From assembly GCA_965224025.1 (NCBI GenBank), contig OZ245033.1, forward strand, positions 256,001 to 320,000: a stretch of DNA of 64,000 nucleotides, given 5' to 3'. This stretch comes from Candidatus Multivorans sp. Its GTDB lineage: Bacteria > Acidobacteriota > Thermoanaerobaculia > Multivoradales > Multivoraceae. Position 1 is the first letter of the stretch, and the number at the start of each line of letters is the position of its first letter. The notes under the pieces were generated by a model, which saw only the letters and a list, made by a program, of their open reading frames with translations, made no database searches and was not told the origin of the DNA. Below are positions 33,401 through 57,740 of this stretch, in pieces. The position numbers and the translations under genes are program-made.

Positions 33401-33435
33401 CAGGCAACACTACCGCAAGGGAGAAGGAGGACGAG

Positions 33436-38270: not shown

Positions 38271-38284
38271 TGGCGGAACGCAGC

Positions 38285-38635: not shown

Positions 38636-38653
38636 GACGGCGACCTCGTGGTT

Positions 38654-39926: not shown

Positions 39927-40103
39927 CCTCGCTAATCTAACGGTTACCGTTAAAAAAGCAAGGCTGGCGGCTCCAGCTACGTTGCCCCGCGACCGCCCGG
40001 GCACCGTAGTAGAGTCCGCTATCCCACCCACAACACAACCCAAGGAACCGGCACGCCGGGGCCTACGATGCGCGCAACCGCGTCACACTACGAGGAGACA
40101 CTC

Positions 40104-40835: not shown

Positions 40836-41100
40836 GCGGCTGCCGCTGGTGCGGCGGCGCCCGGAATGCCGGCCAGAAGGCCGGCGCACCTGTACCTTTC
40901 CGGGATGCATTCTGGCGTGTCGTTGAGAGAGGTGGAATGGACCAGTAGCCGTCGTGGCTGCGGTAGCTGTGGGAAACCGGCTTGCCGGTTTTCCAAGGTC
41001 CGGCGGGAAACGGTCTGCCGTTTTCCGCCGGGCCGGCAGCTTCCGCAGCCGAGACCGCCGGTCGGTTGCGTCTCCGGCCTGCCGGAGTCACTGAAGGAAA

Positions 41101-41255
41101 GTCGGCAAGCAGCCAGGAGCAACCACCGGCGTACTGTGCTTCGAGCACCTGGCTGGGACCCGTGCCCTGGCTGCTTCGCCGCGTTGGACGCCCAGTGGAG
41201 AGTCAGTGCCTTAGAGCACCAGTACAGGTACGGGCAGGCAACGCGGCATGCCGAC
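41101..41255 (+). ncRNA. IS110 bridge RNA core, copy 2
   Basis: Same architecture as copy 1; LTG variant CCGGCGTAC at 41126-41134. Confidence 0.85.
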
Positions 41256-41290
41256 CAGGCAACACTACCGCAAGGGAGAAGGAGGACGAG

Positions 41291-42544
41291 ATGACCAGGA
41301 CGTGGTTCGTCGGCGTGGACTGGGGGTCCGAGACCCACCACGTGTGTGTGCTGGATCGGGACGGCAAGGTGAGGGGGGAGCGGGCGTTCGACCACAGCGG
41401 CAAGGGACTTGCCGCCATGGCCGACTGGCTCCTTGGACATACCCGACCGACGTCTCCGGACGAGATCGGCGTCGCCATCGAGGTGCCGCACGGACCGGTG
41501 GTCGAGACTCTCCTGGAGCGGGGCTTCGCCGTGCATTCGATCAACCCCAAGCAGCTCGACCGCTTCAGGGACCGCTTCTCCGTCGCCGGCGCCAAGGATG
41601 ACCGCCGCGATGCACGGGCGCTCGCCGCCGCGCTTCGCACCGACCCCGAGTGCCTGAACCGCGTGCAACCATCCGATGCAGCCATCGTGATGCTGCGCGA
41701 GGTGTCCCGCGGCCGCAAGCAGTTGGTCGGCCAGAAGAACCGCCTGGAGAACCAGGTCCGCGACCAGCTCTGGCGCTACTACCCGCAGTTTCTCGCCGTG
41801 GTCAAGAACGAGGTGTCGGCGCCCTTCGCGCTGGCCTTGTGGCGACTGGCGCCGACCCCCGACAAGGCTCGACGGCTGCGCGAAGACACGCTCGCCAAAC
41901 TGCTCAAGGAACACCGCATCCGGCGCCTGACTGCCGCCCAACTGCGCGATCAACTGCGGGCCGAGCCGATCGCCGTTTCCCCGGACACCGTTAAGGCCGC
42001 CGTCGAACACATAGGACTCCTCCGGCCGGTGCTCGACACCGTCTGCCGCCAACTCGCCGACGCCGAAAGGCGGCTGGAGCGGATGACCCGCGCACTCGAA
42101 GCCGACCTCTCCCGGGAAAACGACGACGACACGCCCAAGCCGAGCGACGCCGCCATCCTCAGGTCGCTGCCCGGACTCGGCAAGGTCGGCCTCGCCACCC
42201 TGCTCTCCGAGGCCGATCAAAGCCTGGGCCGCAGAGACTACGAGGCACTGCGTTGCCTCTGCGGAGTGGCGCCGGTGACCGTCAAGTCCGGCAAGAAGCT
42301 CATCGTCATGCGACGACTCGCCGCCAACGAACACCTCAGCGACGCCGTCTATCACTGGGGACGAGTCGCCATCCAGCACGACCCGATCAGCCGCGCCAAG
42401 TACGACGCCATGAAAGCCGAAGGCAAGACACACGGACGAGCCATCAGACAACTCGTCGATCGACTCCTCGGCGTCGCCTGCGCCATGCTCCGAGACCGCA
42501 CTCTCTTCGACCCCAACAAGAGAAGCCATGCCCAGGTCGCATGA
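41291..42544 (+). CDS. IS110 DEDD recombinase (417 aa)
   Basis: Near-identical to 33436-34689 with catalytic motifs intact. Confidence 0.95.
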   Translation: MTRTWFVGVDWGSETHHVCVLDRDGKVRGERAFDHSGKGLAAMADWLLGHTRPTSPDEIGVAIEVPHGPVVETLLERGFAVHSINPKQLDRFRDRFSVAGAKDDRRDARALAAALRTDPECLNRVQPSDAAIVMLREVSRGRKQLVGQKNRLENQVRDQLWRYYPQFLAVVKNEVSAPFALALWRLAPTPDKARRLREDTLAKLLKEHRIRRLTAAQLRDQLRAEPIAVSPDTVKAAVEHIGLLRPVLDTVCRQLADAERRLERMTRALEADLSRENDDDTPKPSDAAILRSLPGLGKVGLATLLSEADQSLGRRDYEALRCLCGVAPVTVKSGKKLIVMRRLAANEHLSDAVYHWGRVAIQHDPISRAKYDAMKAEGKTHGRAIRQLVDRLLGVACAMLRDRTLFDPNKRSHAQVA

Positions 42545-43884: not shown

Positions 43885-44085
43885 ATGGAATCTCATACCA
43901 AGACACGCGCCGTGGGCAAAGCACTGCTCGCTGTGTTGATCGGCATTCTCGCCGGTGCTGGGTTCAATGCTGCGCTCGGTGAGAAAGGCGCGGACACGCC
44001 GGCGCTCGCGTTGATCGGCGGTGCAGTGGCGCTCGTCGTCGTGGTCGTGCGGGCTCGACGGCGAGCGCGAGAGTCACAGCCCTAG
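43885..44085 (+). CDS. Small two-TM hypothetical membrane protein
   Basis: Two hydrophobic stretches followed by an Arg-rich tail. Confidence 0.45.
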   Translation: MESHTKTRAVGKALLAVLIGILAGAGFNAALGEKGADTPALALIGGAVALVVVVVRARRRARESQP

Positions 44086-46025
44086 GGCGTGTACCAGATC
44101 GGCGACGACCAGGCGCGTTCCTGGATGGTTGCCGGGAAGTCCTGGCGGGGAGTTGTACCGGCTCGGATCGCGTCCCAGGACGACCAGCGGCAGGTGGGGT
44201 TCTCCAGGACCCGGGCGTAGTAGAAGGCGCGCTGGCCCGGATCGAAGTCGGCGTCGGTCCAGATGGTCTTCAGTTCCGCGGCGCCGACCCCGGTGCTGGT
44301 CGAGCAGTCGCTGAGATCGACGGTGGCGCCGTTGTCGGGGCAACGGTTGGTGGCCGGGTCGACTTCGAGGCCGTCGGAGCAGGCGACGTCGTAGACTATC
44401 TCCGCGGTTTCGCCCCCGGATTCCCAGCCCTTGACGATCTGCATGCGCTGGAGCGGGGCGGCCATGGTGTCCTGCATGGCCCAGACGAGGAAGCTGGGTG
44501 CTGAGTCGCCGTCGTCACCGGTGAGGTCGCCGCCCATCGCGACGCCGGCCTCGTACGCACCCGCGACGAGGTCCGGGTCGTCGAGGTCGAGGCCGGCCAG
44601 GGCCGACCCGCCGAAGAAACGGACCTGGATCCGGGTACCGCTGGTGGCGAAGGTCTCCTTGCGCCGGAAGGCGTCGAAGATCGACTCTCGGGTGTTCTCG
44701 TCGGCCCACGCGGCGGCGAGGCCGGAGGCGCCGTTGGTGATCGCGGTCGTGAAGGGATAGATGCGGCCGGTGCCGTCGTCGATCGGCTGTGCGGCGGCAG
44801 TGGGGTTCTGCAGGTCGGCCCCGGCCCCGGGCTGGCTGGGAACCGAGCCGCGCTGCTCGGCGGTCTGCTGCATGAGGCCCGAAGCGCCCCAGTAGTTCTC
44901 TTCGTCGAAGGAGCCGGCGGCGACGTGGGTGTCGGACGAGCCGATCACGCCGACCTTGTAGGGGTTCGACACGCCGCCCGCTTCGATCGTCAGGCCGCGG
45001 CGAAGGGCGTCGCGCACGTAGCTGCCCGGCGGCTCGCTCAGGATGCTGGTCGAGACGCGGTAGGGCATGATCTCGAAGCCCGCCCACTCGTCGTTCGGCG
45101 ACAGGGCCGGGTGGGTCTCGGAGGTGCCCTTGGTCTGGGTGATCTCGACGATCGGCTCGTTGCGGCTGCGGAGGTCGGAGTAGGCCTGGTCGATCGCGCC
45201 GCCCTCGAAGTACTCGTATTCGAACATCCGCCCGCCGGACCCGTTCGTGTTGTGGGGAATCGCGATCGCCTCGTAGCCGTCGGCGCGCCACTCGTCCATC
45301 CGCGCCCAGAGGTCCTCCGGGTTGTACGAGTCGAGCCGGGAGAACGGGATGTCCGGCGCCTCGGCGCCGCGGAAGACGACATTGCGGTGCAGGTTCTCGT
45401 AGATGCCGCCGGCGCCGGCCGACGTGTACTCGTAGGCGATGAAGGTCGTGAACACGCCGGGCTCGTAGTGGCGGTTCGCGGAGGCCGCGATCTCGCTCCA
45501 GGCGGAGCGCACGACATCCTTGTCGAGATGCTCGCGGATACTCGGATCGGCGTCGGCCATGTAGCGCACGTAGGGCTGCATGGCGGCGAAGATGCCCCGC
45601 CGCTCCTGGACGGTTTCGGCGTTGCGGACTGTCTCGGCCGCGGGGTGGTTGTACGCCGGCTGGTCGGGGTCGGTCATCGCGGGCAGCATGCCGAGGTAGT
45701 TCGCGTGGTCCGCGACGCCCTGGAAGTCGAGCGGCCGGTCGAGCTGGAGGTCGAAACCGGCCGGGTGCTTGATCGGGTTCCCCTTGGCGAACTCGTAGGC
45801 CTCGTCCGGGCCGGCCCGGGTCGCGAACACGAAGGCGTCGTAGGAGTACTTCGTGTGGACGTGCAGGTCGCCGAAGAACGCCTGGCGGTCGGCGGGCGGT
45901 CCGGCATCGGCCGCGGAGGCGCCGGCAGGCGTGGCGGACGTGCCCGACGAGTCCGAATCGCCGGCGGCGCAACCAAGGGTCAGGAGTACGGTCAGGCTCA
46001 GGATCAGAACGGCTATTCGGCGCAC
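44082..46025 (-). CDS. DUF3604-family PHP-like metallo-lipoprotein
   Basis: FFGDLHVHTKYSYD, ADHA, NLHRNV, IPHN, SSDTH, ETFATSG, QERAWSSPIWY; start approximate. Confidence 0.85.
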   Translation of the reverse strand: MRRIAVLILSLTVLLTLGCAAGDSDSSGTSATPAGASAADAGPPADRQAFFGDLHVHTKYSYDAFVFATRAGPDEAYEFAKGNPIKHPAGFDLQLDRPLDFQGVADHANYLGMLPAMTDPDQPAYNHPAAETVRNAETVQERRGIFAAMQPYVRYMADADPSIREHLDKDVVRSAWSEIAASANRHYEPGVFTTFIAYEYTSAGAGGIYENLHRNVVFRGAEAPDIPFSRLDSYNPEDLWARMDEWRADGYEAIAIPHNTNGSGGRMFEYEYFEGGAIDQAYSDLRSRNEPIVEITQTKGTSETHPALSPNDEWAGFEIMPYRVSTSILSEPPGSYVRDALRRGLTIEAGGVSNPYKVGVIGSSDTHVAAGSFDEENYWGASGLMQQTAEQRGSVPSQPGAGADLQNPTAAAQPIDDGTGRIYPFTTAITNGASGLAAAWADENTRESIFDAFRRKETFATSGTRIQVRFFGGSALAGLDLDDPDLVAGAYEAGVAMGGDLTGDDGDSAPSFLVWAMQDTMAAPLQRMQIVKGWESGGETAEIVYDVACSDGLEVDPATNRCPDNGATVDLSDCSTSTGVGAAELKTIWTDADFDPGQRAFYYARVLENPTCRWSSWDAIRAGTTPRQDFPATIQERAWSSPIWYTP

Positions 46026-46138
46026 GGCGGGCCTCCCCTCGGCCAGTGGGATCTCGGATTGGTTGCCAGTGTAGCGACCTGCGGCGGCGCTAGGATGAAC
46101 GGCCAACCCGTTTCCTGTCCGCCTCGTCTGGAGGAGCC

Positions 46139-48973
46139 ATGGCTCGACAACTCGTCCTGCGCGCCGCCCCTCTCTGTTGTCTCACTGGCCTGCTCTTTGC
46201 GGCAGGCTCGCTCACCGCACAGGCGATTCCGCCGCTCGCCGGCGACGACGTGGTCTCGGTCCGGGTCCAGTTCGGCATCACGGACACGGAACCGCGGTCG
46301 TGGGACGGTTCGGTCGAGGCCAGCGGCGGCGAGGTGCTGGCCGTTCGCAACTGGAGCGTGCACCCGTCGGAGTCGGTCCAGGGCAACAGTTGGACGATGG
46401 CAACCCGGGAGGGCATGAACTACCCGCGGCGCGTGTACCAGTGGGAGGACCCGCAGGGCACGGTGACCTACCTGCATCAGCCCGGAGTGGTCGTCGACGT
46501 GGCGGACAGCGGTGGGACGCGGCTTGCGTTCACGACGCCCCAGGGCGACTTCGACCTGCGGCCGGCGGACCTTCGCGTTGGCGAGGAGCTCTCCTTCCTC
46601 GACGGCGCCGTGCTGGCCGACCGGGTGGCGCCGGCGGAACCGCTGTCGTCACCGGACCATGAGAACGACTTCGCGACGTTGGCAAGCGGCGAGAACGGCG
46701 AGGTGTGGGCCGCCTGGACCGCCTACCGGGACGGCGGCGTCTCGATCATGGCGCGACGCTTCGACGGCTCGACCTGGCTGGCGGCCACCGCCGTGACCAG
46801 CGAGCCGGGCGACCGGCTGATGCCGAAACTGGGCCGCGACGGCCAGGGTAGGCCCTGGGTGGTCTGGTCCGAGCAGGTCGACGGCAACTTCGACCTCTAC
46901 GGCCGCCACCTCGAGGACGCGGACACCGGCGACTGGTCGGCAACCGAGCGCCTGACCTCGGCGCCCCAGGCAGACATCGAACACGAACTCGCCACCGACT
47001 CGAACGGCGACCTGTGGCTCGTGTGGCAGGGCTTCCGCGACGGGCGGTCCGACATCCTCGCCCGCCGCTACGAGGGCGCCGGCTGGTCGGCCGAGGAGAC
47101 CGTCTCGACCTCGCCCGCCAACGACTGGACGCCGGCGGTTGCGGCCTGCGGTGACGGTTCCGTCTACATCGCCTGGGACACCTACGATGAGGGCAACTAC
47201 GACGTGCTGCTGCGCCGCTTCTCGGGTGGCCGCTGGGGCGACGCGGCCCCGGTAGCCGACACGCCGAAGTTCGAGGCCCACGTGTCGATCGCCTGCGACG
47301 GCCAGAACCGGCTGTGGGCGGCCTGGAACGAGAGCGGCTTCCAGTGGGGCAAGGACTCGGGCTTCGAGATCTACAAGGAGGCGACCCGCATCTACGAGTG
47401 GCGCTCGCTGGCCGTCGCGGTCTGGGACGGCGTCAGGTGGCAGGTTCCCGCGGACGACGTGAACGAACTGCTCGAACGGGAACTCCCCGAGTACATCCCG
47501 GGGTTCAACGACCTGCCGGTGCTCCAGGCCGACGCCGACGGTCGGATGTGGCTGTTCTTCCGCCACCGCACGATCCGGGCCCGCGACACGCCGGCCCACC
47601 GCGCGGTCTGGCAGCTCCACGGCACGGCCTACGTCGGCGGCGAGTGGACCCGGCCGCTTCACCTGCCGTTCAGCCGCGGGCGCCAGGACGTGCGCTGGGG
47701 TCTCGCCTCGGACGGCCAGGGCAACCTGTTCGCGGCCTGGCCGACGGACAACCGCGACTCGGAGGAGTACCTCTTCAACCACTCCCAGATCAACGCGGCG
47801 AAGCTCCCCGCGCTGGGCGGTGAGGCCACGCCGCCGCGGCTGGTCGACCCGGCAGAGCGCGAGTACCACACCTACCCGGTCCACCCCAACGAGGCCGAGG
47901 ACGTGGCCCGCATTCGCGCCTACACGATCGAATCGGAAGGCCGCACCTACAAGATCTACCGTGGCGACACGCACCGCCACACGGAGTTCTCGCACGACGG
48001 CCTGAACGACGGCTCGTTGATGGAGGCGTACCGCTACGCCCTCGACGCCGCCGAACTCGACTTCCTGGGCGTCAGCGAGCACAACAACCGGGGCGGCCAG
48101 GACATCGAGTACGTGAACTGGCTGCACCCGCAGATCGCCGATATCTTCCGCCTGCCCGGGAGCTTCGTGCCCGTCTACACCTACGAGCGCAGCATCAGCT
48201 ACCCGGACGGCCACCGCAACATCCTCTCGGCCAAGCGCGGCATCCCGACCCTGCCGATCACCGAGGCGGAGCAACAGCACGAGGAAGGCGCGGCGAGGCT
48301 GTTCGCGTACCTCCGGGAGCACGACGCGATCTCGATCCCCCACACCTCGGCCACCGGCATGGGTACCGACTGGCGCGACAACGACCCCGAAGTCGAGCCG
48401 CTGGTCGAGATCTACCAGGGCGACCGCACGTCGGCCGAGTACGAGGGCGCCCCGCGCGCGCCGACGGCCGAGAAACCGTACGGCCAGCAGGGCGGCTTCG
48501 AGCCCGCCGGGTTCGTCTGGAACGCCTGGGCCAAGGGGTACAAGATCGGCGTGCAGGCGGCGTCGGACCACATCTCGACGCATATCTCCTACGCCGCCAC
48601 GATCGCCGAGGACTTCAGCGCCGAGGGCCTGCTCGATGCGATGAAGAAGCGCCACTCCTACGCAGCGACGGACAACATCGTCCTCGACTACCGGATGCGC
48701 GCGAACGGCAGGGAGTACCTGCAGGGCGACATCGCCGAGGTCTCGGGCCGCTTCGAACTGGTGGTCAACGTGATCGGCACCGCCCGCATCGAGCAGATCG
48801 ACATCATTCGCGACCAGACGTTCCTCTACAACAGACAGAACCTCGACCAGGAGGTCGAGCTGACCTTCGTGGACAGCGACGTTACACCCGGCGAGCACTA
48901 CTACTATGTGCGGGTGATCCAGAAGAACCGGGAGATCGCCTGGTCGTCGCCGATCTGGGTGACGGTCGAGTAG
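46139..48973 (+). CDS. Secreted beta-propeller plus PHP/DUF3604-like protein
   Basis: Signal peptide, repeated W-x-x-W propeller blades, GDTHRHTEFS, SEH, GHRN, IPHT, ASDH, AWSSPIWV. Confidence 0.75.
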   Translation: MARQLVLRAAPLCCLTGLLFAAGSLTAQAIPPLAGDDVVSVRVQFGITDTEPRSWDGSVEASGGEVLAVRNWSVHPSESVQGNSWTMATREGMNYPRRVYQWEDPQGTVTYLHQPGVVVDVADSGGTRLAFTTPQGDFDLRPADLRVGEELSFLDGAVLADRVAPAEPLSSPDHENDFATLASGENGEVWAAWTAYRDGGVSIMARRFDGSTWLAATAVTSEPGDRLMPKLGRDGQGRPWVVWSEQVDGNFDLYGRHLEDADTGDWSATERLTSAPQADIEHELATDSNGDLWLVWQGFRDGRSDILARRYEGAGWSAEETVSTSPANDWTPAVAACGDGSVYIAWDTYDEGNYDVLLRRFSGGRWGDAAPVADTPKFEAHVSIACDGQNRLWAAWNESGFQWGKDSGFEIYKEATRIYEWRSLAVAVWDGVRWQVPADDVNELLERELPEYIPGFNDLPVLQADADGRMWLFFRHRTIRARDTPAHRAVWQLHGTAYVGGEWTRPLHLPFSRGRQDVRWGLASDGQGNLFAAWPTDNRDSEEYLFNHSQINAAKLPALGGEATPPRLVDPAEREYHTYPVHPNEAEDVARIRAYTIESEGRTYKIYRGDTHRHTEFSHDGLNDGSLMEAYRYALDAAELDFLGVSEHNNRGGQDIEYVNWLHPQIADIFRLPGSFVPVYTYERSISYPDGHRNILSAKRGIPTLPITEAEQQHEEGAARLFAYLREHDAISIPHTSATGMGTDWRDNDPEVEPLVEIYQGDRTSAEYEGAPRAPTAEKPYGQQGGFEPAGFVWNAWAKGYKIGVQAASDHISTHISYAATIAEDFSAEGLLDAMKKRHSYAATDNIVLDYRMRANGREYLQGDIAEVSGRFELVVNVIGTARIEQIDIIRDQTFLYNRQNLDQEVELTFVDSDVTPGEHYYYVRVIQKNREIAWSSPIWVTVE

Positions 48974-49729
48974 ATGGACACAGTCTGGGTCCTGGTCTCG
49001 GCCGCGGTCGGCATCGGCTTCGTGCATACGCTGATCGGCATCGATCACACGCTGCCGTTCGTGGTGCTCGGCAAAGCGCGCGGCTGGTCGCTGCGCCGGA
49101 CGCTGTGGATCACCGGACTGTGCGGCGGCGGCCATGTCGCGTCGTCGGTTGTGCTCGGCGGCGCGGGTATCGGGCTGGCGATCTTCGCTACCGGTCTCGA
49201 CACGCGAGAGGGTTACCACTGGATGCAGGGGCGGGTGGGCGCTTTCGAGTCCATCGAAGCGGTCCGCGGCGACCTCGCGGCGTGGGCGCTGGTGGCTTTC
49301 GGCCTGACCTACGCGGCCTGGTCCCTGGCGCGGAGGCGAAGGCAGCAGCGCCACGTGCACGAACACGCCGGCGGCCTCGTTCATTCGCATGACCATCCAG
49401 CCACCGGCGGCCACGAGCACCCGTCCGGCAAGGCCGCCGGGGTTGCCGGCCTGACCGCCTGGAGCCTGTTCGTCATCTTCGTGCTCGGGCCCTGCGAGCC
49501 GCTGATCCCGATCCTCATGGTGCCGGCCTTCCAGATCGGCCTGTGGGCGGTCATCCCGGTGACCGTGGCGTTCGGCGTGACGACGATCGCGACGATGGCG
49601 GCGGTCGTGGCCCTCGCCTACCGGGGTCTCGAGTTCGCGCGGTTCCCCCGCCTGCAGGCCCATGTCCACACGCTGAGCGGGCTCGCGATCGCGAGTTCGG
49701 GGCTGGCCATGTTGTTGTTTGCGATGTGA
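48974..49729 (+). CDS. His-rich Ni/Co transporter-like membrane protein (NicO/RcnA/DsbD_2 type)
   Basis: FVHTLIGIDHTLP, GHVASS, HVHEH..HSHDH loop, GPCEP. Confidence 0.7.
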   Translation: MDTVWVLVSAAVGIGFVHTLIGIDHTLPFVVLGKARGWSLRRTLWITGLCGGGHVASSVVLGGAGIGLAIFATGLDTREGYHWMQGRVGAFESIEAVRGDLAAWALVAFGLTYAAWSLARRRRQQRHVHEHAGGLVHSHDHPATGGHEHPSGKAAGVAGLTAWSLFVIFVLGPCEPLIPILMVPAFQIGLWAVIPVTVAFGVTTIATMAAVVALAYRGLEFARFPRLQAHVHTLSGLAIASSGLAMLLFAM

Positions 49730-49745
49730 GCGGCGCACCCTCCTG

Positions 49746-52700
49746 ATGGGCCCAACCTTCCACGACGACGGGCACGGCCATAGCCACGGCCACAGCCACG
49801 GGCTGCTGCAGCGGATCGGCTACATCGCGCTCTGCGGCGCGGTCGGCGTCCTGCTGCTGCTGTACCTGACCGGTGCGCTCCGCACCGTCGCCGGCATCGA
49901 CCTGGCGCTGATCCTGACCCTGGTCGCGGGCTATCCGCTCATCCGCCACGCGATCCTCGACCTGCTCCAGGGGCACTTCTCGTCCCACCTGACGATCGCC
50001 ATCGCGGCCGGCGCGGCGGTGTGGATCGGCGAGTACTTCGCCGCCGCCGAGGTCATGTTCATCATGCTGATCGGCGAGGGAATCGAGCACTGGACGGTCG
50101 ATCGCGCCAAGGGGGCGATCGCCGGCTTCGTCGCCAGCCAGCCGGACCAGGTGCGGGTGCTGCGAGACGGCGGCGAGGAACTCGTTGGCCTGGACCAGGT
50201 CGAGATCGGCGACCTCGTGCGGGTGCTCGCGGGGGAACGGGTGCCGGTGGACGGGATGATCGAGCGCGGCGATTCGTCCGTCGACCAGAGCAGCGTGACC
50301 GGCGAACCGTTGCCCGCCGAACTCGGCGTCGGCGACGCGGTGTGGAGCGGCAGTCTGAACGAGTACGGCGTTCTCGACATCCGCTCCGAACGCACCGGCA
50401 GCGACACCACCGTCGCCCGCATCGCGAACCTGATCGAGGACGCGCAGAGCCGGCGGGCACGGGTCGTGCGCACCGCGGACAAGCTGGCGCGGTACTTCCT
50501 GCCTGCCGTGCTCGTCGCAGCCGCCGCCATCTATTTCTTCACCGGCGAGATGATGCGCACGGTGGCGGCCCTGATCGTCGCCTGCCCGTGCGCGCTGGTG
50601 TTGGCAACGCCGGCGGCGATGGCTTCGGCGATCGCCCGGCTGGCGCGCGAGGGCGCCCTGGTCAAGGGCGGCGACGTGATCGAGTCGCTCTCGCGGATCG
50701 ATGCCTGCGTACTCGACAAGACGGGCACGTTGACCTGCGGGCGTCCGGCACTGACCGCGATCGCGCCGGTCGCGGGCATGGACGAGGCTCGCATGCTCCA
50801 ACTCGCGGCGAGCGCCGAACTGACCTCGGAGCACCTGCTCGGCCGGGCGCTGGTGACCGAGGCCAGGGAGCGCCGGCTCGACCTCTCGGAGCCGGACGAC
50901 TTCAAGCTCCACCCCGGCCGCGGTGTCACGGCATCCGTGGACGGCCACCAGATCGCGGTCGGCAACCAGGCGCTGCTGGCCGGAGTCATCGCCGAAGACG
51001 ATCTCGATGCCGTGGCCGAAAGCCTCGTCCCGACACCGGGTACCGGCGAGACCCGGCTGGCGGTCACGGTCGACGGCGCCTTCGCCGGCGCCATCGCCCT
51101 CGCCGATCCGCTGCGCGACGAGGCCGCGGAAGCGGTCGCCGACCTGCGGCAAACGGGCGTCGACCCGATCGTCATGCTGACCGGCGACGCCGAGGCCACG
51201 GCGCGCGCGATCGGCCGCCGGACACGCATCGACCAGGTCCACGCGGAGCTCCTGCCCGAAGAGAAGGTGCGCAAGCTCAGGGACCTCTCCCGCGGCGACC
51301 GCAACGTCCTGATGGTCGGCGACGGGATCAACGACGCGCCCTCGCTGGCGGCCGCGTCCGTCGGCGTCGCGATCGGCCACGGCGCCGCGGATCTCTCGGC
51401 CGAGGCGGCGCAGGTCGTCCTGATGCCCGACCGGCTCGACTACCTGGCGCCTCTGGTGCGGTACTCCCGCCGGGTGGTGGCGCGAATCCGGAGCAGCATC
51501 CTGATCTTCGCCTTCGGGATCAACTTCGTCGCCGTCGGGTTCGCCGCCTTCGGCTGGCTGCCTCCGGCCGCCGCGGCGATCGTCCACCAGGCCGCTTCCC
51601 TGCTGGTCATCCTGAACTGCGTTCGCCTGCTCTACGAGGGCCGGGCAGTGGCCGAGCGTCCCGGCGGCCGCCTGGGCCGCTTCCCCGCTCTCGCCGGAGC
51701 GGCGGAGGGGATGGCTGCCGGCTGGAGATCCCTGCACGCCGGCCGGCGCGAAGCGGTTCACCGCATCGAGCACGCGCTCGAAGAGAGCCCGGCGCGGCTC
51801 CGTGCGGCGGCGCCGCGGCTACTGCGCGCGGCGCCGTTCGTGCTCTTCGCGGTCTGGGCGGCAAGCGGAGTACGGATGATCGCACCGCAGGAAGTCGGTC
51901 TGGTGCAGCGCTTCGGCCGGCACGTCGGCGCCGAGCTCGGTCCGGGCCTGCACTGGCGTTTGCCCTGGCCCGTGGATCGGGTGACCCGCGTGGAGCCGCA
52001 GCGCCTGCGGGTGGCCGCCGTCGGCTCGCCGCGAGCGGCTGCACCCACCGAAGCCGGCGCGAGGCCGAACTACGAGTGGAACGTGCGCCACGCCGGCTTC
52101 GACGACACGCCGCCGCTCGAACGACTCATGCTGACCGGGGACGAGAACCTGGTCGAGGTCGCCGCTCGCATCCACTACCGCATCGCCGACTCCGCCGCCT
52201 TCGCCTTCGGCGCCGCCGATCCGGCACTCGTGGTCGATTCGTCGGCGGAGCGGTCGCTGCGTACCGTTCTCGCGGGTCACACGCTGGACGACGTGCTGAC
52301 CGGCAAGCGGGAGGGGATCGAGCGCGCCTGGAGTGAGCACCTCGCCGCCCTGCTCGACCGCCTCGGCATCGGTGTCGAAGTGGTCGGCGCCACAGTCCAG
52401 GACGCCCATCCGCCGCTCGATGTCGTCGATGCCTTCCGGGACGCGGCGAGCGCCCTGGAGGAGCGGGAGACCCTGATCGACAAGGCGGAGGGTTACGCCC
52501 TGGAACGCCTGCCCGTAGCGCGCGGCGAAGCGCAACGGCAACTTCTCGAGGCCGAGGGCTACCGGAATGAGCGGATCGAGGCCGGTCGGGGCGAGAGCCA
52601 GCGCTTTGAACTGCGCGCCGGAGGGTACCGGCGCGATCTCAACCTGCACCGCTTCCGCCTCCAGTTGGAGACGCTGGAGAGTTCGCTCGCCGGCAAGCCG

Positions 52701-52823
52701 AAACTGATCACCGACGCCGACGCCGGCCGCAAGCGTTTCGTCTTCGTGGACGAAACGAGCGACCGCCTTCTCGATGTGTACGTTCCTCCACCGGGTGCTC
52801 CCCAAAACGAGGTCAACCAGTGA
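49746..52823 (+). CDS. Heavy-metal P1B-type ATPase fused to a C-terminal HflK/SPFH domain
   Basis: His-rich N-terminus, TGE, CPC, DKTGT, MLTGD, GDGIND, then VQRFGR..PGLHWRLPWPVD, MLTGDENLV, HPPLDVVDAF in a single ORF. Confidence 0.9.
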   Translation: MGPTFHDDGHGHSHGHSHGLLQRIGYIALCGAVGVLLLLYLTGALRTVAGIDLALILTLVAGYPLIRHAILDLLQGHFSSHLTIAIAAGAAVWIGEYFAAAEVMFIMLIGEGIEHWTVDRAKGAIAGFVASQPDQVRVLRDGGEELVGLDQVEIGDLVRVLAGERVPVDGMIERGDSSVDQSSVTGEPLPAELGVGDAVWSGSLNEYGVLDIRSERTGSDTTVARIANLIEDAQSRRARVVRTADKLARYFLPAVLVAAAAIYFFTGEMMRTVAALIVACPCALVLATPAAMASAIARLAREGALVKGGDVIESLSRIDACVLDKTGTLTCGRPALTAIAPVAGMDEARMLQLAASAELTSEHLLGRALVTEARERRLDLSEPDDFKLHPGRGVTASVDGHQIAVGNQALLAGVIAEDDLDAVAESLVPTPGTGETRLAVTVDGAFAGAIALADPLRDEAAEAVADLRQTGVDPIVMLTGDAEATARAIGRRTRIDQVHAELLPEEKVRKLRDLSRGDRNVLMVGDGINDAPSLAAASVGVAIGHGAADLSAEAAQVVLMPDRLDYLAPLVRYSRRVVARIRSSILIFAFGINFVAVGFAAFGWLPPAAAAIVHQAASLLVILNCVRLLYEGRAVAERPGGRLGRFPALAGAAEGMAAGWRSLHAGRREAVHRIEHALEESPARLRAAAPRLLRAAPFVLFAVWAASGVRMIAPQEVGLVQRFGRHVGAELGPGLHWRLPWPVDRVTRVEPQRLRVAAVGSPRAAAPTEAGARPNYEWNVRHAGFDDTPPLERLMLTGDENLVEVAARIHYRIADSAAFAFGAADPALVVDSSAERSLRTVLAGHTLDDVLTGKREGIERAWSEHLAALLDRLGIGVEVVGATVQDAHPPLDVVDAFRDAASALEERETLIDKAEGYALERLPVARGEAQRQLLEAEGYRNERIEAGRGESQRFELRAGGYRRDLNLHRFRLQLETLESSLAGKPKLITDADAGRKRFVFVDETSDRLLDVYVPPPGAPQNEVNQ

Positions 52824-52888
52824 GCGACCAAGGCCATGAACATCACCACGAATCTAATCATCACGGTCAGCGTGAGGTAGACCAATGA
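52820..52888 (+). CDS. 22-aa His-rich mini-ORF coupled between the ATPase and hflC
   Basis: GTG..TGA = MSDQGHEHHHESNHHGQREVDQ*; GTGA overlap with the ATPase stop, ATGA overlap with the hflC start. Confidence 0.5.
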   Translation: MSDQGHEHHHESNHHGQREVDQ

Positions 52889-53856
52889 CCAACCACAGCC
52901 ACGAGCATCACCACGACCATCACGGTCACCACGACGAGGCGCACCGCCACGACGGCGGCGACGGGCACGAGCATTCGCCGGGCCGTGGCACGTCCTGGTG
53001 GCGCGCCGGCCTGGCCGTGCTGGCGATCGTCGCGCTGGCGCGGTGCGTGTTCGTCGTGCCCGAAACCGAAAGCGCGATCGTCACCCGGTTCGGCAAGCCG
53101 GTCCGGACGATCGAAGCGCCGGGCCTCCGGTTCAAGTGGCCGATCGACCGCCGGCTCCGCTTCGACAACCGCGTGCTCCTCTACGATCCGGCGCCGGCCG
53201 AGTTTCTGACCCAGGACAAGAAGAACCTGGTCGTCGATACGGCGGTCGTCTGGCGGATCGCCGACCCGGCCCGGTTCCTCGAGACGATCGGCGACATCTC
53301 GGGCGCCGAGATGCGGCTGCACGACGTGGTGTGGGCGGGTCTGGCGGCCGCCCTCGGCCGCACGGAGCTCTCGCAACTCGTGTCCACCGAGCCGAAGACA
53401 CTGCGGATCGAAGAGGTCTCCGCGGAGGTCCGCGAGTCCGCCGGCGCGGTGTCCGGCCCACAGCTCGGAGTCGAGATCCTGGAAGTGCAGCTCACCCGCG
53501 TGAGCTTCCCCGAGCAGAACCTGGAGTCCGTCTTCGCCCGCATGCGGGCCGAGCGCGAGCGGATCGCCAAGGAGTACCGTGCCCAGGGCGAGGAACAGGC
53601 GATGGTCATCCGCGCCGAGGCCGACCGCGACCGTGAGCTGATCCTGGCGGCCGCCTACCGCGACGCCGAGATTCTGCGCGGCAAGGGCGACGCCGAGGCA
53701 GCCGGCATCTACGGCGCCGCCTACCGGCAGGACCCGGCTCTCTACCGGTTCCTGCGCACTCTCGAGTCCTACGAGTCGATCCTGGACGACCAGACCACAG
53801 TCATCCTGTCGGCGGACTCGGAGCTCTTCTCGCTGCTGGGCGGAGGATCCGAATGA
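52885..53856 (+). CDS. hflC: HflC-like SPFH protein with His-rich N-terminus
   Basis: IVTRFGKP, PGLRFK, LTQDKKNLVVD, WRIADP, RMRAERERIA, YRFLRTLESY. Confidence 0.88.
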   Translation: MTNHSHEHHHDHHGHHDEAHRHDGGDGHEHSPGRGTSWWRAGLAVLAIVALARCVFVVPETESAIVTRFGKPVRTIEAPGLRFKWPIDRRLRFDNRVLLYDPAPAEFLTQDKKNLVVDTAVVWRIADPARFLETIGDISGAEMRLHDVVWAGLAAALGRTELSQLVSTEPKTLRIEEVSAEVRESAGAVSGPQLGVEILEVQLTRVSFPEQNLESVFARMRAERERIAKEYRAQGEEQAMVIRAEADRDRELILAAAYRDAEILRGKGDAEAAGIYGAAYRQDPALYRFLRTLESYESILDDQTTVILSADSELFSLLGGGSE

Positions 53857-54785
53857 GGCTTCGCGGCCTCCCGACCGCGGCGCTGGCGCTGGCCCTGATG
53901 TGGGCGGGCTGGGGCGTGTACTTCGTCGCGCCGGACGAGGAGGCGGTGGTGCGGGTACTCGGCCGCGCCAGGGTGACTCCCGCCGGACCCGGACTGCACT
54001 GGAACTGGCCGCGGCCGGTGGGTCGGGTCGACAAGCTGAAGGTGCGGGAAGCCAAGCGCCTGACCCTGGGCTTCGCAGCCGCGGACCGCGTGCTGGGCGG
54101 CGATTTGGGCCCGGCCGAAGCGCGCTGGTTGACTGGCGACCGGAACGTGGTCCATGTCCGGCTGGTGATCCTGTACTCGATCCACGATCCGCTCGCCTAC
54201 TCGCTGCGTTTCGCCGATGTCGAGGCCTTGCTGCAGGCGACCGGGCGCAGCGCCCTGCTCGAGGTGATCGCCGGCATGAGCGTCGACGAACTGCTGACCA
54301 CCGGCAAGGTGGCGGTGCAGCAGAACGTCCAGGCCGCCTCGCAGGGTCTGTTCGACCGCTTCAAGACCGGCGCGACCGTGCTCTCGGTGAGTCTGGAAGG
54401 CGTGAGCCCGCCGAGCCCCGTGCGCGAGGCCTTCAACGACGTGGCCAGCGCGCGCGAGGATCGCGACCGCCTGGTCCGCGAGGCCGAGAGTTACCGCAAC
54501 GAGGTCGTCCCGGTGGCCCGTGGCGAGGCGCGCACGCTCGTAGCTCAGGCCGAGGGCTTCCGGACGGCTGAGGTCGAACGGGCCACGGGTGAAGCCGACC
54601 GTTTCCGCCGGGTCGCCGGCGCCGACCAGGGTGCGCGCAACGAGATTCGCACCCGCACCTACCTGGAGACGATGGAACGTGTCTTCCCGCGCATGAAGAA
54701 GACGATCCTGGAGCCGGGCCAGAGCACGATCGACATCGACTTCCTGCGCAGCGAGTTGACCAACGGGTCGAGAGGCCCGCAGTGA
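53853..54785 (+). CDS. hflK: HflK-like SPFH protein
   Basis: PGLHWNWP, LTGDRNVV, PPSPVREAFNDV, ARGEA, GEADRF, YLETME. Confidence 0.88.
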   Translation: MRLRGLPTAALALALMWAGWGVYFVAPDEEAVVRVLGRARVTPAGPGLHWNWPRPVGRVDKLKVREAKRLTLGFAAADRVLGGDLGPAEARWLTGDRNVVHVRLVILYSIHDPLAYSLRFADVEALLQATGRSALLEVIAGMSVDELLTTGKVAVQQNVQAASQGLFDRFKTGATVLSVSLEGVSPPSPVREAFNDVASAREDRDRLVREAESYRNEVVPVARGEARTLVAQAEGFRTAEVERATGEADRFRRVAGADQGARNEIRTRTYLETMERVFPRMKKTILEPGQSTIDIDFLRSELTNGSRGPQ

Positions 54786-55270
54786 GGATCACGCGCAACC
54801 TGGGGGCGACGGCGCTGACCGTGGTGGTGCTCCTGGCCGGCCTGGCCGTGGCTCTTCGGGACCGCCTGCCGGAGCGCTCGGGCAACACGGGCGACGCGGG
54901 TGCCCCCAGGGAGATCTTCTGGCAGATGGTCGAAGCGAGCCGCGAAGGCGCGGTGGCGGTCTACCTCGATCTCTTTGCCGGGGAGGTCCGCGAACAGCTC
55001 GACACGGTCCGCGACGAGATGGGAGACGCCGCGTTCGAGCAGTATCTCCGGCAACGGTTCGCGGATGTGAAGGGCGTCGCAGTGATCGATGAAGAGGATC
55101 GCGGCGAGACCGTGCGGCTCCAAGTCGAGTACGTCCGGGCCGCGAGCTACGACACCCAGAGCCTCGATCTCCGTTCGTCACGGGGGCGCTGGCGCATCGT
55201 CGCCGTCGGCCCGACCCAGGAACGCGAACCGCCGGTTCCCTACGGCACGCCCGTCGGCCCCGCCGACTGA
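54782..55270 (+). CDS. Membrane-anchored hypothetical protein (NTF2-like?)
   Basis: One N-terminal TM helix, 4-nt overlap with hflK, C-terminal GRWRIV. Confidence 0.6.
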   Translation: MRITRNLGATALTVVVLLAGLAVALRDRLPERSGNTGDAGAPREIFWQMVEASREGAVAVYLDLFAGEVREQLDTVRDEMGDAAFEQYLRQRFADVKGVAVIDEEDRGETVRLQVEYVRAASYDTQSLDLRSSRGRWRIVAVGPTQEREPPVPYGTPVGPAD

Positions 55271-55289: not shown

Positions 55290-56476
55290 ATGAGGAAGCT
55301 CGCCATCGCTTTACTTGCGCTCTTCCGCCGCGTCTCGCTGGCGAGCTCCGTGGGCAATCCGAGGACGACGTCGCCGCGCAGCGCGTGGTCAGCGGCCGCG
55401 CCTGGGACGAGTTCTGCGACACGCTGAAGGCGGCCGGTGCGGCGCTCAACTTCCCGGGCACGCCCCGCGACGCGTTCAACCAGGCCGAGGGCTACCGGTA
55501 CCTGAGCCGTCTGACACGCGCCGGTCTGATGGCCTTCCTCGAGCACGCCGACCCGAGAGCGCCGGTCCTCCACCGGGTCGCCCACGAAACGGTCAAGCTC
55601 GGTTCTGACAACCCGGACAACCACTACCTGACGGCCGCCCTCTCGGGCGCGTACGAGTACCGGATCACGGGGCGCCGCAACACCGTCGCCTACCTCGGGT
55701 TCGGCACCCAGACCGGGCACTACGGCCAGGGAGGCGGCATGCCGCCGACCGGCTACGTCGAGGCCGCGGAACTCGAGATCGACGCGGAAGGCCGTTTCGA
55801 GTTGTTCCTCAGTTGCGAGCGCCAGGACGGGAACTGGCTGCCCATGGCGCCCGAGACCGGCATGTTGATCGTGCGCCAGACCTTCCTCGACCGCCGCACG
55901 GAGATCCCGGCAGAACTGCACATCGAGCGGATCAACTGCGCTCCCAAAGAGAAGAGTCCCGCGCCCCTGACGCCGACTCAGGTCGACGAAGGGCTGCGCT
56001 CGGCGAGCACCCTGGTCGCCGGCGCATCGCTCCTGTTCGCGAAGTGGGCCCGCGACTTCCAGAAGCACTCGAACAGACTGCCCCGCTTCGACCAGGAGAC
56101 GTCGAACCAGGCCGGGGGCGACCCCAACATCGCCTACTACCACTCGCACTGGCGGCTGGCCGAGGACGAAGCGCTGGTGATCGAGGCCACGCCGCCGGAG
56201 TGCGAACACTGGAACTTCCAGCTCAACAACCACTGGATGGAGTCGCTCGACTACCGCTACCACACGATCCACACCAACAAGCATCTCGCCGACTACGAGA
56301 GCGACGGCTCCGTGCGCCTGATCGTCGCGCACGAGGACCCCGGGCTTCCGAACTGGCTCGAGACCGCCGGCCACACCTCCGGGACCATGTGCTTCCGTTG
56401 GATCCGGGCCGAGGAGCACCCGGAGCCGGCAACCCGGGTCGTCAAGCTGAGCGAGCTTCGGGCGCTTCGCCGGTAA
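55290..56476 (+). CDS. DUF1214-type protein (apparent frameshift near 55340)
   Basis: AWDEFCDTL, AEGYRYLSRL, DNPDNHY, WNFQLNNHWMESLDY, DPGLPNWLET; RBS-backed ATG 55290 is out of frame with the main ORF (55385-56476). Confidence 0.75.
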
Positions 56477-56480
56477 GCGG

Positions 56481-57740
56481 ATGCCGAAGCGGGTTACCGA
56501 GACGCCGACGAACTACGAGCGGCCGTACCGGCCGCTTCCGGTCGCGCTGCTGAATGCCGCCGGGCGGGCGGGCGGCCATCTTGGCCTGCGCGGAGAGCTG
56601 GACGTCGGCTCGATGATCGCAAGGGCGCGGAGGAGGACGGGGCTCGCCAGCTTCGGCGACGAGTGGTTCATGGAACCGCTGTCCGTGCTCGTCCGTTCGA
56701 TCAACGAGGAGGCCGGCCTCACGACCCTGGGCCGCTTCATCCAGAAGCGGCGGATCGAAGGTCTGCTGGCAACGCGCCTGCGGGTCGAGGAGCTGATCCG
56801 CAGGCACCCGGAGATACGCGACATCGACCTCGGCAGCGTCGTCGTGATCGCCGGCCTCCAGCGGACGGGCACGACCACGCTGCACCGGCTGATCGCGTCC
56901 CACCCGGACATGCGCGCCGTCACGGCCTGGGAAGGACTGAATCCGATGCCCCTGCCGCGCGAGGAACCGGGAGACCCTCACGCCCGGATCCGGCAGGCCC
57001 TCCTCGCCGAACGCGCAATCGCCTACCTGGCCCCCGCCTTCTTCGCCGTGCATCCCGCCGAACACGACGCCCCCGAGGAGGACGTGCTTCTGCTCGACGT
57101 GTCCTTCATGAGCCAGTCGGCCGAGGCGACGATGCATGTGCCGACCTACGCGCGCTGGCTCGAAGAACACGACCACACGAGAACGTATGAGGAGTTCCGC
57201 ACCCTGCTCCAGGTCCTGCACTGGCAACGTCCACGCCGTCACTCGGTGCTCAAGACACCGCACCACATGGAGTACCTGGACACCGTCCTCGCGGTGTTCC
57301 CGACCGCCACGATCGTGCAGACGCACCGCGATCCCCTGAAGACCATCCCCTCCTTCTGCAGCATGGTCGCCCACGGCCGGGGGATGTTCAGCGACCGCGT
57401 GGAACCGGGGGAAATCGGCGCGCACTGGCTGGCCAAGACCTGCCGCCTGATCGAGCGCACCGCCGGCGCCCGGGAAGCGGCGGACCCGCGCCGTTTCGTC
57501 GACGTCTCTTACTACGACCTCGTCAGCGACCCCATGGCGCAGCTATGCCGGGTCTACGAACGGGCCGGCATCCCCTTCGGCCCGAACGCGGTGAGCGCCG
57601 CCGAGCGCACCGCGGGCCGCAACGTCCAGCACCGCTACGGACGGCATGTCTACGATGCGGAGAGCTTCGGCCTGACCCGCGAGGCAATCGAGCGCGCCAT
57701 CAAGTCCTACCGGCGCAGGCACAGCATTCCCTACGAGTAG
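56481..57740 (+). CDS. Sulfotransferase (Sulfotransfer_3 type)
   Basis: PAPS-binding loop GLQRTGTTTL, VLKTPHH, THRDP..SFCS, YYDLVSDP. Confidence 0.9.
   Translation: MPKRVTETPTNYERPYRPLPVALLNAAGRAGGHLGLRGELDVGSMIARARRRTGLASFGDEWFMEPLSVLVRSINEEAGLTTLGRFIQKRRIEGLLATRLRVEELIRRHPEIRDIDLGSVVVIAGLQRTGTTTLHRLIASHPDMRAVTAWEGLNPMPLPREEPGDPHARIRQALLAERAIAYLAPAFFAVHPAEHDAPEEDVLLLDVSFMSQSAEATMHVPTYARWLEEHDHTRTYEEFRTLLQVLHWQRPRRHSVLKTPHHMEYLDTVLAVFPTATIVQTHRDPLKTIPSFCSMVAHGRGMFSDRVEPGEIGAHWLAKTCRLIERTAGAREAADPRRFVDVSYYDLVSDPMAQLCRVYERAGIPFGPNAVSAAERTAGRNVQHRYGRHVYDAESFGLTREAIERAIKSYRRRHSIPYE

Follow-up and report, generated by a model that had tools for sequence, protein, structure and literature searches.

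The 64,000-nucleotide stretch of Candidatus Multivorans sp. DNA analyzed here (the window; positions 256,001 to 320,000 of contig OZ245033.1, assembly GCA_965224025.1) contains a region of six co-directional, tightly packed genes on the + strand (46139-55270; Table 1), one of which encodes a P1B-type metal ATPase joined to an HflK-type protein of the SPFH superfamily. The original prediction, made from the letters alone, described within this region a tightly coupled operon of a permease, the ATPase-HflK fusion, HflC, a second HflK and a small anchored protein, and every one of these genes is found, all on the + strand. Judged by sequence, the locus is a conserved four-gene module that consists of a divalent-metal P1B-ATPase-HflK fusion, an HflC-like protein, a second HflK-like protein and an anchored NTF2-like protein. 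The architecture is real, conserved and, apparently, undescribed.

Organization of the operon

The gene for P0006 stops at 48973, and that for the permease P0001 starts at 48974. The open frame of the fusion (49719-52823) overlaps the end of the permease gene (49729); translation probably begins at the ATG at 49746, as judged from the 1025-residue length of the identical protein in the database. The gene for P0003 begins after a 61-nt gap 3' of the fusion frame, and 4-nt overlaps connect P0003 with P0004 and P0004 with P0005. Neither a + strand terminator nor a sigma-70-like site was found between 45500 and 56000.

Table 1. Coordinates of the operon genes and of the parts of the ATPase-HflK fusion, in positions of the window
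Feature	Position	Strand	Description
P0006	46139-48973	+	944 amino acids, predicted exported, C-terminal PHP-like CehA/McbA/DUF3604-type metallohydrolase region
P0001, permease	48974-49729	+	251 amino acids, polytopic membrane protein with His-rich loop; putative UreH/NicO/RcnA-like, Ni/Co-type
Fusion, P1B-type ATPase part	49746-51638	+	Eight membrane helices; His-rich N-terminus 49761-49802
Fusion, pump motifs	CPC 50583-50591; DKTGT 50715-50729; HQAAS 51585-51599 (last pump helix)	+	
Fusion, cytoplasmic linker	51639-51830	+	About 64 residues, from the last helix of the pump to the HflK membrane helix
Fusion, HflK-type part	51831-52823	+	Ninth membrane helix, SPFH domain, long coiled coil, C-terminal strands
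Fusion, YEWNxxH motif of the insertion in HflK part	52071-52091	+	Residues 785-791 of the fusion
P0003, HflC-like	52885-53856	+	323 amino acids, cytoplasmic His-rich N-terminal tail, one membrane helix, SPFH domain
P0004, second HflK-like, free-standing	53853-54785	+	310 amino acids
P0005, small protein	54782-55270	+	162 amino acids, N-terminal membrane anchor and NTF2-like alpha+beta domain

The pump part of the fusion

The fusion comprises the Pfam domains E1-E2_ATPase (residues 140-310), HAD (327-546) and Band_7 (720-926), and residues 91-637 match the NCBIfam model for heavy-metal P-type ATPases, TIGR01525, with 541.8 bits against a cut-off of 346.25. The characteristic motifs are TGEP (194-197), CPC (289-291), DKTGT (333-337), GDGINDAP (534-541) and HQAAS (623-627), with D333-T337 invariant across 37 fused relatives, so that the P1B-ATPase and the three motifs on which its recognition had relied (CPC, DKTGT and HQAAS of the last helix) stand where they were placed. 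Among solved structures, 7qbz, deposited as ‘Cadmium translocating P-type ATPase’, comes closest (E 2.6e-100, residues 15-638); we take it to be the P1B-4 pump sCoaT, and the match takes in the first two pump helices as well as the N-terminal His-rich region. The two proteins differ in that 7qbz carries SPC and HEGST in place of the CPC and HQAAS of the fusion, and has no SPFH extension.

The assignment to a subgroup is less straightforward. The models for copper pumps (P1B-1) are not matched: TIGR01511 scores 389.8 bits, under the cut-off of 397, and the CopA equivalog 331.9 versus 1316. For P1B-2 (Zn/Cd/Pb) pumps, the signs are mixed: the TIGR01512 model (IB2, Cd-type) scores above its cut-off (455.9 versus 313.5 bits) and the ZntA models far below theirs (341 versus 1240), and the last pump helix has HQAAS, a ZntA-type Asp motif being expected for this group. 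With CPC and HQAAS, the pump lacks the P1B-4 (Co/Zn/Cd) signature (SPC, HEGxT), and the sequences with SPC and HEGST lie outside the clade of fused pumps in the tree described below. For P1B-6-like (CtpC-like) pumps, passages of a review (PMC13460109) give the motif N-X18-H-N-X-(S/T) between helices 5 and 6; the pump reads N602-X20-H623-Q-A-A-S, and HNxxS is found in unfused sequences that form a separate clade from the fused pumps. The signature of the fused-pump clade is CPC, with few variants, combined with H-(Q/E)-x-x-S in the last helix. In one fused pump, P0127 (49% identity in the pump part), the helix 4 motif is CSC rather than CPC; the same passages give CSC for the poorly known P1B-7 group (PMC13460109). 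By these models and motifs, the pump fits no named P1B subgroup cleanly. The pumped metal is probably of the divalent first-row Zn/Co/Ni/Cd type, given that TIGR01512 scores above and TIGR01511 below the respective cut-off and that 7qbz is the best solved relative; transport is probably outward.

The HflK part, topology and predicted structure

Residues 719-1003 of the fusion match the HflK equivalog model TIGR01933 with 181.1 bits against a cut-off of 159.4, and the HflK structure 7vhp in the PDB is matched by the same part of the protein (E 1.7e-28). With a single open frame and both Band_7 and TIGR01933 recognized (the latter above the cut-off), the covalent fusion of the ATPase to a full HflK domain that had been predicted is borne out. 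A hydropathy scan finds nine helices, eight of them in the pump and the last at residues 704-722. The even number of pump helices implies a cytoplasmic C-terminus of the pump, and the ninth helix, which follows the cytoplasmic linker, puts the SPFH domain in the periplasm, as in free HflK.

An AlphaFold2 model of the fused protein alone, built on the 37 fused relatives, has a mean predicted local distance difference test score (pLDDT) of 81. The pump is well defined and matches solved P1B-ATPase structures. The linker, variable in sequence among the fused relatives, is modeled with low confidence (pLDDT about 53-76) as a long helix, residues 656-715, that runs into the ninth membrane helix. 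The HflK part is composed of strands (718-897), helices (900-972 and 974-990, a coiled coil of about 90 residues) and further strands (995-1021). Hydropathy and the model together give the fusion the complete HflK-type architecture, that is, a single membrane helix with the N-terminus inside, the SPFH domain, the coiled coil and the C-terminal cap region. What sets the ATPase-fused HflKs apart is a periplasmic insertion of about 20 residues with a conserved Y-E-W-N-x-x-H, in which Y, E, W, N and H are invariant; it is modeled with low confidence (pLDDT <50). Neither the second HflK-like protein nor the HflKs fused to cation diffusion facilitators (CDF; see below) nor canonical HflK has this insertion in the alignment.

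The free SPFH subunits and the small protein

The two free SPFH proteins are recognized by Pfam (Band_7) and by the respective equivalog models, P0003 by TIGR01932 for HflC (219.5 bits, cut-off 134.4) and P0004 by TIGR01933 for HflK (184.3 bits, cut-off 159.4). P0003 is 36% identical to the canonical HflC of the same genome and 47-50% identical to its orthologues in distant modules; P0004 shares 34% of its residues with the fused HflK part and 33% with canonical HflK. Across the SPFH proteins of the operon, identity is 28-36% with the canonical pair and 27-34% within the set. The genome contains eight Band_7 regions: the three in the operon, a canonical HflK/HflC pair of adjacent genes at 1.261-1.263 Mb of the same contig (C1), and a stomatin-like, a 318-amino-acid and a flotillin-like protein. 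Its sole Peptidase_M41 (ftsH) match lies at C1:16518-18521, 290 kb away from the operon, and the window (C1:256001-320000) is indeed devoid of ftsH, as noticed originally. Given the canonical hflK/hflC pair located elsewhere in the genome and the lone, distant ftsH, the HflC-like and HflK-like genes are, on the evidence of gene content, a dedicated extra set; the dedicated HflC and HflK of the original prediction are thereby retained, and the module travels without ftsH. A second, higher-scoring HflC is also encoded elsewhere in the genomes G170, G190 and G196; in G201 and G203, the HflC of the module alone passes the cut-off.

The small protein P0005 contains no Cys and no His, as judged from an alignment of 30 orthologues. 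Its AlphaFold2 model (pLDDT 82, core >92) retrieves NTF2-like proteins as the top Foldseek matches (E about 1e-4, template modeling score 0.51-0.61 normalized to the target), and the predicted fold thus makes it an NTF2-like protein and the conserved fourth gene of the ATPase-type module.

Conservation and distribution of the fusion

Both the ATPase and Band_7 are present in 117 of the 120 best relatives of the fusion (out of 4312 at E<=0.001), which are about 1000 residues long and extend down to 41% identity; the three relatives without Band_7 are 585-708 residues long. For the genomic context, one genome per species was scanned with an alignment of the HflC-like protein as the query, and the loci of the best 80 of the 311 relatives were examined (31 close and 49 distant). 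The ATPase and the HflK part share a single open frame in 68 of the 80 loci; a contig end cuts six (L055, L056, L057, L063, L065 and L077), and the two parts are in different frames in four (L072, L080, L088 and L093). One more locus, L085, was considered as an unfused form and rejected as such, being a decayed fusion remnant, and in the last, L061, an NRAMP gene stands where the pump would be (see below). The order of the fusion, HflC-like, HflK-like and small protein genes is kept at about 40% protein identity, in agreement with the earlier suggestion that similar gene clusters may exist elsewhere. Among the distant loci, the second HflK-like gene is found downstream in 46 of 49 and the small protein gene in 33 of 49, with four further loci having no room for it; the positional filter under-counts these downstream genes in the 31 close loci, where the locus listing shows both wherever there is room.

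Confirmation of the fusion had been sought in homologues and in reads. The homologues provide it; the read evidence is weak, the contigs being short and possibly coming from the source sample. One Logan contig of 286 nt, identical to the window, spans 51566-51851, that is, the end of the pump and the linker, and may come from that sample. No RNA sample is listed among those with sequence from this stretch.

A pump-only search of 1.84 billion representatives returned 150 proteins; according to blastp, the pump is followed by an SPFH region in 44 of them. A FastTree phylogeny of 145 sequences, from which P0137, P0234, P0243, P0256, P0257 and P0275 were excluded because of their short alignments, unites the fused pumps in a single clade of 48 (42 fused and 6 scored as unfused; SH-like support 99). 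Among these six, one is marked as partial at the source and one ends inside the SPFH region. The grouping of the fused pumps in one clade points to a single ancestral pump-HflK fusion. For the closest unfused pumps, the cluster names give uncultured taxa only.

The record titles of the 80 loci are mostly from Acidobacteriota (Thermoanaerobaculia including ‘Candidatus Multivorans’, Holophagales, Vicinamibacterales, Blastocatellia, Bryobacterales and Acidobacteriaceae), with one record apiece labeled Gemmatimonadaceae, Abditibacteriales and Clostridia, and the names of protein clusters extend the fusion to Fervidibacterota and Abditibacteriales. Full-length matches occur in 8 of 201 sampled Acidobacteriota genomes, three from the genus of the window, four from one other genus and one from a third; G024, another genome of this sample, has none. 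Among 151 sampled genomes from the phylum of the Gemmatimonadaceae record, the fusion is present in that genome only. Such patchy spread fits lateral transfer.

Other metal transporters joined to HflK-type proteins

The P1B-ATPases are not the only transporters associated with HflK-type proteins. The best plasmid match to the HflC-like protein P0003 comes from Aquibium oceanicum (NZ_CP018172; 43% identity by tblastn, 41% by blastp), where the gene lies between two genes annotated hflK. A 515-amino-acid protein encoded there and annotated ‘FtsH protease activity modulator HflK’ (L097:6361-7908) consists of a Cation_efflux membrane domain of the CDF family and a Band_7/HflK part. As in the window, the transporter is N-terminal to the HflK part, and the HflC-like and second HflK-like proteins follow; the differences are that a Cation_efflux domain takes the place of the ATPase and that the fused HflK part has no YEWN insertion. 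A P0005-like gene was not found in the Aquibium module (hhalign probability 0.4%). All of the 120 best relatives of this CDF-HflK protein (out of 1732) carry both domains, and their names include Rhizobium, Oceanicaulis, Kouleothrix and Chloroflexi, with Alphaproteobacteria among the lineages. A second CDF-HflK type of 570-573 amino acids (P0433, P0437, P0441, P0445 and P0448), found by a search with the fused HflK part of the window, is 37-41% identical to that part in its SPFH region; the Pfam analysis was re-run on four of these five proteins, and P0441 was assigned by precomputed domains. Finally, in a Blastocatellia assembly that also holds L055, a second copy of the module (L061) has an HflC-like, HflK-like and NTF2-like set without a fused HflK, and an NRAMP-family gene (L061:8557-9921) ends 10 nt before this set.

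In quick IQ-TREE phylogenies of the SPFH proteins, the ATPase-fused HflKs form one clade (Shimodaira-Hasegawa-like approximate likelihood ratio test support 90-97), the free second HflKs together with the 515-amino-acid CDF type form another (82-95), the 573-amino-acid CDF type is separate (100), and the canonical HflKs make up a fourth clade. From domain composition and these trees, the joining of a transporter to an HflK-type protein took place at least two, and probably three, times. Because CDF exporters are also fused to HflK and an NRAMP protein replaces the pump in L061, the link of the SPFH proteins, as read from sequence, is with divalent-metal transporters in general, which goes beyond the connection with a single pump proposed at the outset and strengthens it.

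His-rich segments and associated genes

The His tracts reported for the permease, the ATPase and HflC are all present: residues 15-28 at the N-terminus of the ATPase, 8 His within 127-149 of the permease and 13 His within 4-30 of the HflC-like protein. All 31 close loci and a single one of the 49 distant loci (L081) encode a His-rich tail (4-15 His) on the HflC-like protein, with 0-2 His in the tails of the other 48, and the His tracts were rejected as a defining feature of the module. The exception, from an Acidobacteria metagenome-assembled genome (54% identity), has its own His/Asp-rich stretch with 14 His before the membrane helix of the HflC-like protein, which may be an independent gain since the proteins ranked next to it have no such stretch.

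The permease P0001 matches no Pfam or NCBIfam model even at E up to 10. Language-model features bring it close (score 0.97) to UreH-like/DsbD_2/NicO clusters, in which 10-70% of the members carry DsbD_2 or NicO. Thus, of the predicted His-rich NicO/RcnA-like permease, the His-rich membrane protein stands, whereas the NicO/RcnA profile does not and the affiliation comes from feature likeness alone. P0001 is present in 30 of the 31 close loci and 2 of the 49 distant ones, being confined to few lineages; in G190, a P0001-like gene adjoins the module in divergent orientation.

The first gene of the region, P0006, encodes a protein with an N-terminal signal-like hydrophobic stretch, which matches NCBIfam CehA_McbA_metalo with 53.9 bits, under the cut-off of 80, and DUF3604 with E 1.2e-5. 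In 24 of the 31 close loci and 11 of the 49 distant ones, a P0006 homologue lies immediately upstream and on the same strand; the upstream sequence is shorter than 6.5 kb in 11 of the 49 distant loci. By this distribution, P0006 is an associated gene outside the core of the module.

Neighboring genes

A divergent DUF3604 gene (44082-46026, - strand, E 3.9e-217) with a lipoprotein-like signal and a likely GTG start near 46026 represents a second PHP-like metallohydrolase adjoining the operon. Farther upstream, two IS110-family transposase frames (33112-34686 and 40967-42541, + strand, both 525 amino acids) lie 4-13 kb from the operon, and a RES-domain protein (37755-38651) and a DUF4143/AAA_14 ATPase (38763-40082) are encoded on the - strand. 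Downstream on the same strand as the operon are a DUF1214-like frame (55385-56476) and a sulfotransferase gene (56481-57740; Sulfotransfer_3, E 1.3e-46), which may share a transcript with the operon because no + strand terminator-like site follows P0005. In distant Acidobacteriota, genes for sulfatases (12 of 50 loci, e.g. L059:12002-13357) and TonB-dependent-like outer-membrane barrels (10 of 50 loci, e.g. L085:17502-20774) occur within 10 kb of the module.

Relation to known systems

The HflK/C proteins are known partners of FtsH. The E. coli complex of HflK/HflC with FtsH (7vhp, 7wi3) resembles the module in that the genes are adjacent and overlapping, as hflK and hflC are, in that the SPFH proteins of the module pass the HflK/HflC equivalog models, and in the shared architecture, with one membrane helix at the N-terminus and the SPFH domain in the periplasm, followed by a long coiled coil and strands at the C-terminus. 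The module differs in having three SPFH subunits, one of them fused to a pump, rather than two, in the presence of a gene for a fourth, NTF2-like subunit, and in the absence of an ftsH, hfq or hflX context.

Full-text literature searches found no paper describing ATPase-HflK or CDF-HflK fusions, in line with the statement of the original prediction that no functional characterization was known, but an unfused counterpart is on record in Pseudomonas aeruginosa. There, according to the gene tables of the papers, the hmtA cluster PA2434-PA2439 places a P-type metal ATPase beside exactly three SPFH genes (HflC family, HflC and HflK family); unlike in the module, the genes are unfused, with PA2436 in between, and the likeness is one of gene tables, not of compared sequences. 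In the published passages, PA2434, PA2435 (HmtA, called an importer) and PA2437-PA2439 (HflC/HflK family) are induced 5.6-14.4-fold in a znuA mutant, and a weak Zur site is listed for the hmtA cluster (PMC4542158). Co-induction of hmtA and PA2437-2439 under zinc limitation is also given in parts of a proteome preprint (PMC11761036), and an N-acetylcysteine transcriptome agrees, identifying PA2437-2439 with PA14_33110, PA14_33080 and PA14_33070 (PMC9431628, in the passages concerned). The same three genes are PaFlo7, PaFlo6 and PaFlo5 of another study, the available text of which contains no ‘ATPase’, ‘HmtA’, ‘heavy metal’ or ‘copper’ and has ‘zinc’ once, in ‘zinc metalloprotease FtsH’ (PMC13086221). 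In none of the passages of these P. aeruginosa papers are the SPFH genes proposed to act with HmtA. Overexpression of HmtA raises cellular Zn and Cu, as stated in parts of reviews that cite Lewinson 2009 (PMC10393844, PMC8456098). No Pseudomonas is among the best 80 of the 311 relatives, the matches of the plasmid search or the proteins listed for the fused HflK query, and homology of the hmtA cluster with the module is a lead.

A functional rather than evolutionary parallel is provided by the ‘effluxosomes’ of Mycobacterium tuberculosis, in which, in the passages on them, PacL1-3 are dedicated single-pass scaffolds co-encoded with P1B-ATPases; the PacL scaffolds stabilize and cluster CtpC, CtpG and CtpV and are needed for these pumps (PMC13460109). 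One PacL has a His/Asp metal-binding tail, parallel to the His-rich tail of the HflC-like protein. The PacL proteins (DUF1490/DUF6110) are small, cytoplasm-facing, unrelated to SPFH and not fused to the pump, so that the likeness is functional only.

A proposed scaffold and alternative explanations

The favored interpretation, which is given an even chance, is that the module is a built-in HflK/C-type ring that keeps metal exporters stable, clustered and insulated. The HflC-like protein would alternate with the fused and the free HflK-like subunits in a common HflK/C-type ring or cage, and because the fused HflK would be a member of this ring, several pumps would be tethered to one bounded patch of the membrane. 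Dilution of the fused subunit by the free HflK-like one would leave pumps at only some of the positions in the ring. Such a scaffold would work independently of the housekeeping HflK/C and resemble PacL in its role for CtpC/CtpG/CtpV; in the lineage of the window, the cytoplasmic His-rich tails of the pump and the HflC-like protein would furnish the patch with a ring of sites beneath it that collect metal. It is possible that the three SPFH proteins close a cage around the pump and create a compartment for storage or metallation. A broader version, in which divalent-metal transporters in general are housed in HflK/C-type SPFH cages independently of FtsH and the patch with its periplasmic chamber is a metal-handling compartment, appears rather unlikely. 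It would have P1B-ATPases and, at least twice, CDF exporters welded to the wall of the cage and NRAMP proteins placed beside it, with the compartment serving the hand-off for efflux or the metallation of exported enzymes, such as the upstream PHP-type hydrolases.

Several observations weigh against the scaffold. The HflK/C-like ring is assumed from homology at 28-36% identity. In the SPFH trees, the order of the backbone among the four clades is open and the HflC-like proteins are not separable from canonical HflC; an initially supported position of the HflK-like proteins of the module as a lineage apart from canonical HflK (80-91) was lost when more sequences were added and was given up. In G201 and G203, the SPFH set may double as the housekeeping HflK/C, in which case it need not be independent of FtsH. 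Being lineage-specific, the His-rich tails cannot be the core mechanism. HmtA is reported to be an importer and NRAMP proteins import, and ‘exporter scaffold’ may therefore be too narrow. In P. aeruginosa, a triple deletion of PA2437-2439 has, in the relevant passages, subtle phenotypes, with metals not among the conditions (PMC13086221).

That the fusion is an artefact of assembly or annotation, or accidental read-through without functional coupling, is extremely improbable. The four loci with different frames, the decayed remnant and the short junction contigs, the best of which possibly comes from the source sample, would be compatible with it, but the continuous frame in 68 of 80 independent assemblies and the joint presence of both parts in 117 protein clusters out of 120, with identities as low as 41%, argue against an assembly artefact, and the topology is consistent and the pump clade monophyletic. 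A more serious competitor, albeit rather unlikely, is control of turnover by FtsH. The HflK part would recruit FtsH or shield the pump, with regulated proteolysis setting pump abundance, and the HflC-like and HflK-like subunits would constitute an FtsH-holding complex with the pump as a built-in substrate or client. The three SPFH proteins pass the NCBI cut-offs for HflK/HflC, the established FtsH partners, and the fused HflK part matches 7vhp; ftsH is present in every genome checked, and G201 and G203 have no second HflC above the cut-off. However, ftsH is not part of the module across the 80 loci, as assessed from the 25 most widespread clusters of neighbors, and a canonical HflK/C pair able to serve FtsH co-exists with the module in four genomes. 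That scaffolds may protect metal-ion pumps against degradation is stated in part of the effluxosome review (PMC13460109) and speaks for regulated turnover.

Quite unlikely is a metallation or export chamber, in which a closed periplasmic cage would enclose the outlet of the pump, the metal being handed to exported apo-enzymes (e.g. P0006) or buffered. A gene for an exported PHP/DUF3604-like protein is indeed directly upstream and translationally coupled in the window, its homologues (25-37% identity) are upstream in 11 of 49 distant and 24 of 31 close loci, a second DUF3604 gene, for a lipoprotein, is divergent, the periplasmic insertion of the ATPase-fused HflK is conserved with its Y, E, W, N and H invariant, and a gene for a periplasmic PPIase-type (peptidyl-prolyl isomerase) chaperone follows the CDF module of Aquibium. 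Nevertheless, a PHP-like gene is missing from 34 of the 49 distant loci and so not core, and the small conserved partner P0005 has neither Cys nor His. HflK/C cages may, furthermore, be fenestrated or open, in which case they would not retain ions; open as well as closed conformations are named in the abstract of PMC13220708. Decidedly doubtful is the remaining possibility, a role in the uptake or allocation of metal during zinc starvation akin to that of P. aeruginosa HmtA, with inward transport or metal economy supported by the SPFH set. An NRAMP importer stands in the place of the pump in one module (L061), but the CDF family, of which at least 120 sequence clusters show the fusion to HflK, consists of exporters. 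Moreover, no inverted repeat of >=12 nt is present at 45800-46260, including the 111-nt gap upstream of P0006, although no dedicated search for a Zur box was made. The zinc-limitation induction of hmtA and PA2437-2439 in three data sets (PMC4542158, PMC11761036 and PMC9431628, in the passages concerned) and the raised cellular Zn and Cu upon HmtA overexpression reported in parts of the reviews (PMC10393844, PMC8456098) favor this role, against which stand the gene-table nature of the Pseudomonas comparison and the remark, in a passage of one of these reviews, that the import claim for HmtA needs confirmation (PMC10393844).

Implications

What SPFH scaffolds (HflK/C, stomatin, prohibitin and flotillin) do for the proteins that they enclose has long been an open question, and, to our knowledge, FtsH is the only structurally defined client of a bacterial SPFH scaffold. 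A covalent fusion names the client unambiguously, and this one is conserved in many lineages and repeated with an unrelated transporter family, so that the function of a scaffold can be tested with a single operon. The known kinds that are extended here are the SPFH scaffolds and the scaffolded P1B pumps, and the two types of CDF-HflK fusions and the NRAMP-SPFH locus are new. Relatives of these proteins are annotated ‘FtsH protease activity modulator HflK’ or ‘Cu+-exporting ATPase’, and either label conceals half of the protein. The fusion suggests a reason for the three SPFH genes beside hmtA in the zinc-starvation response of P. aeruginosa, and the ‘effluxosome’ idea, that P1B pumps need dedicated scaffolds, is extended beyond Actinobacteria. 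Should SPFH cages turn out to be a general housing for divalent-metal transporters, there would be a concrete client and function for a bacterial SPFH cage other than FtsH.

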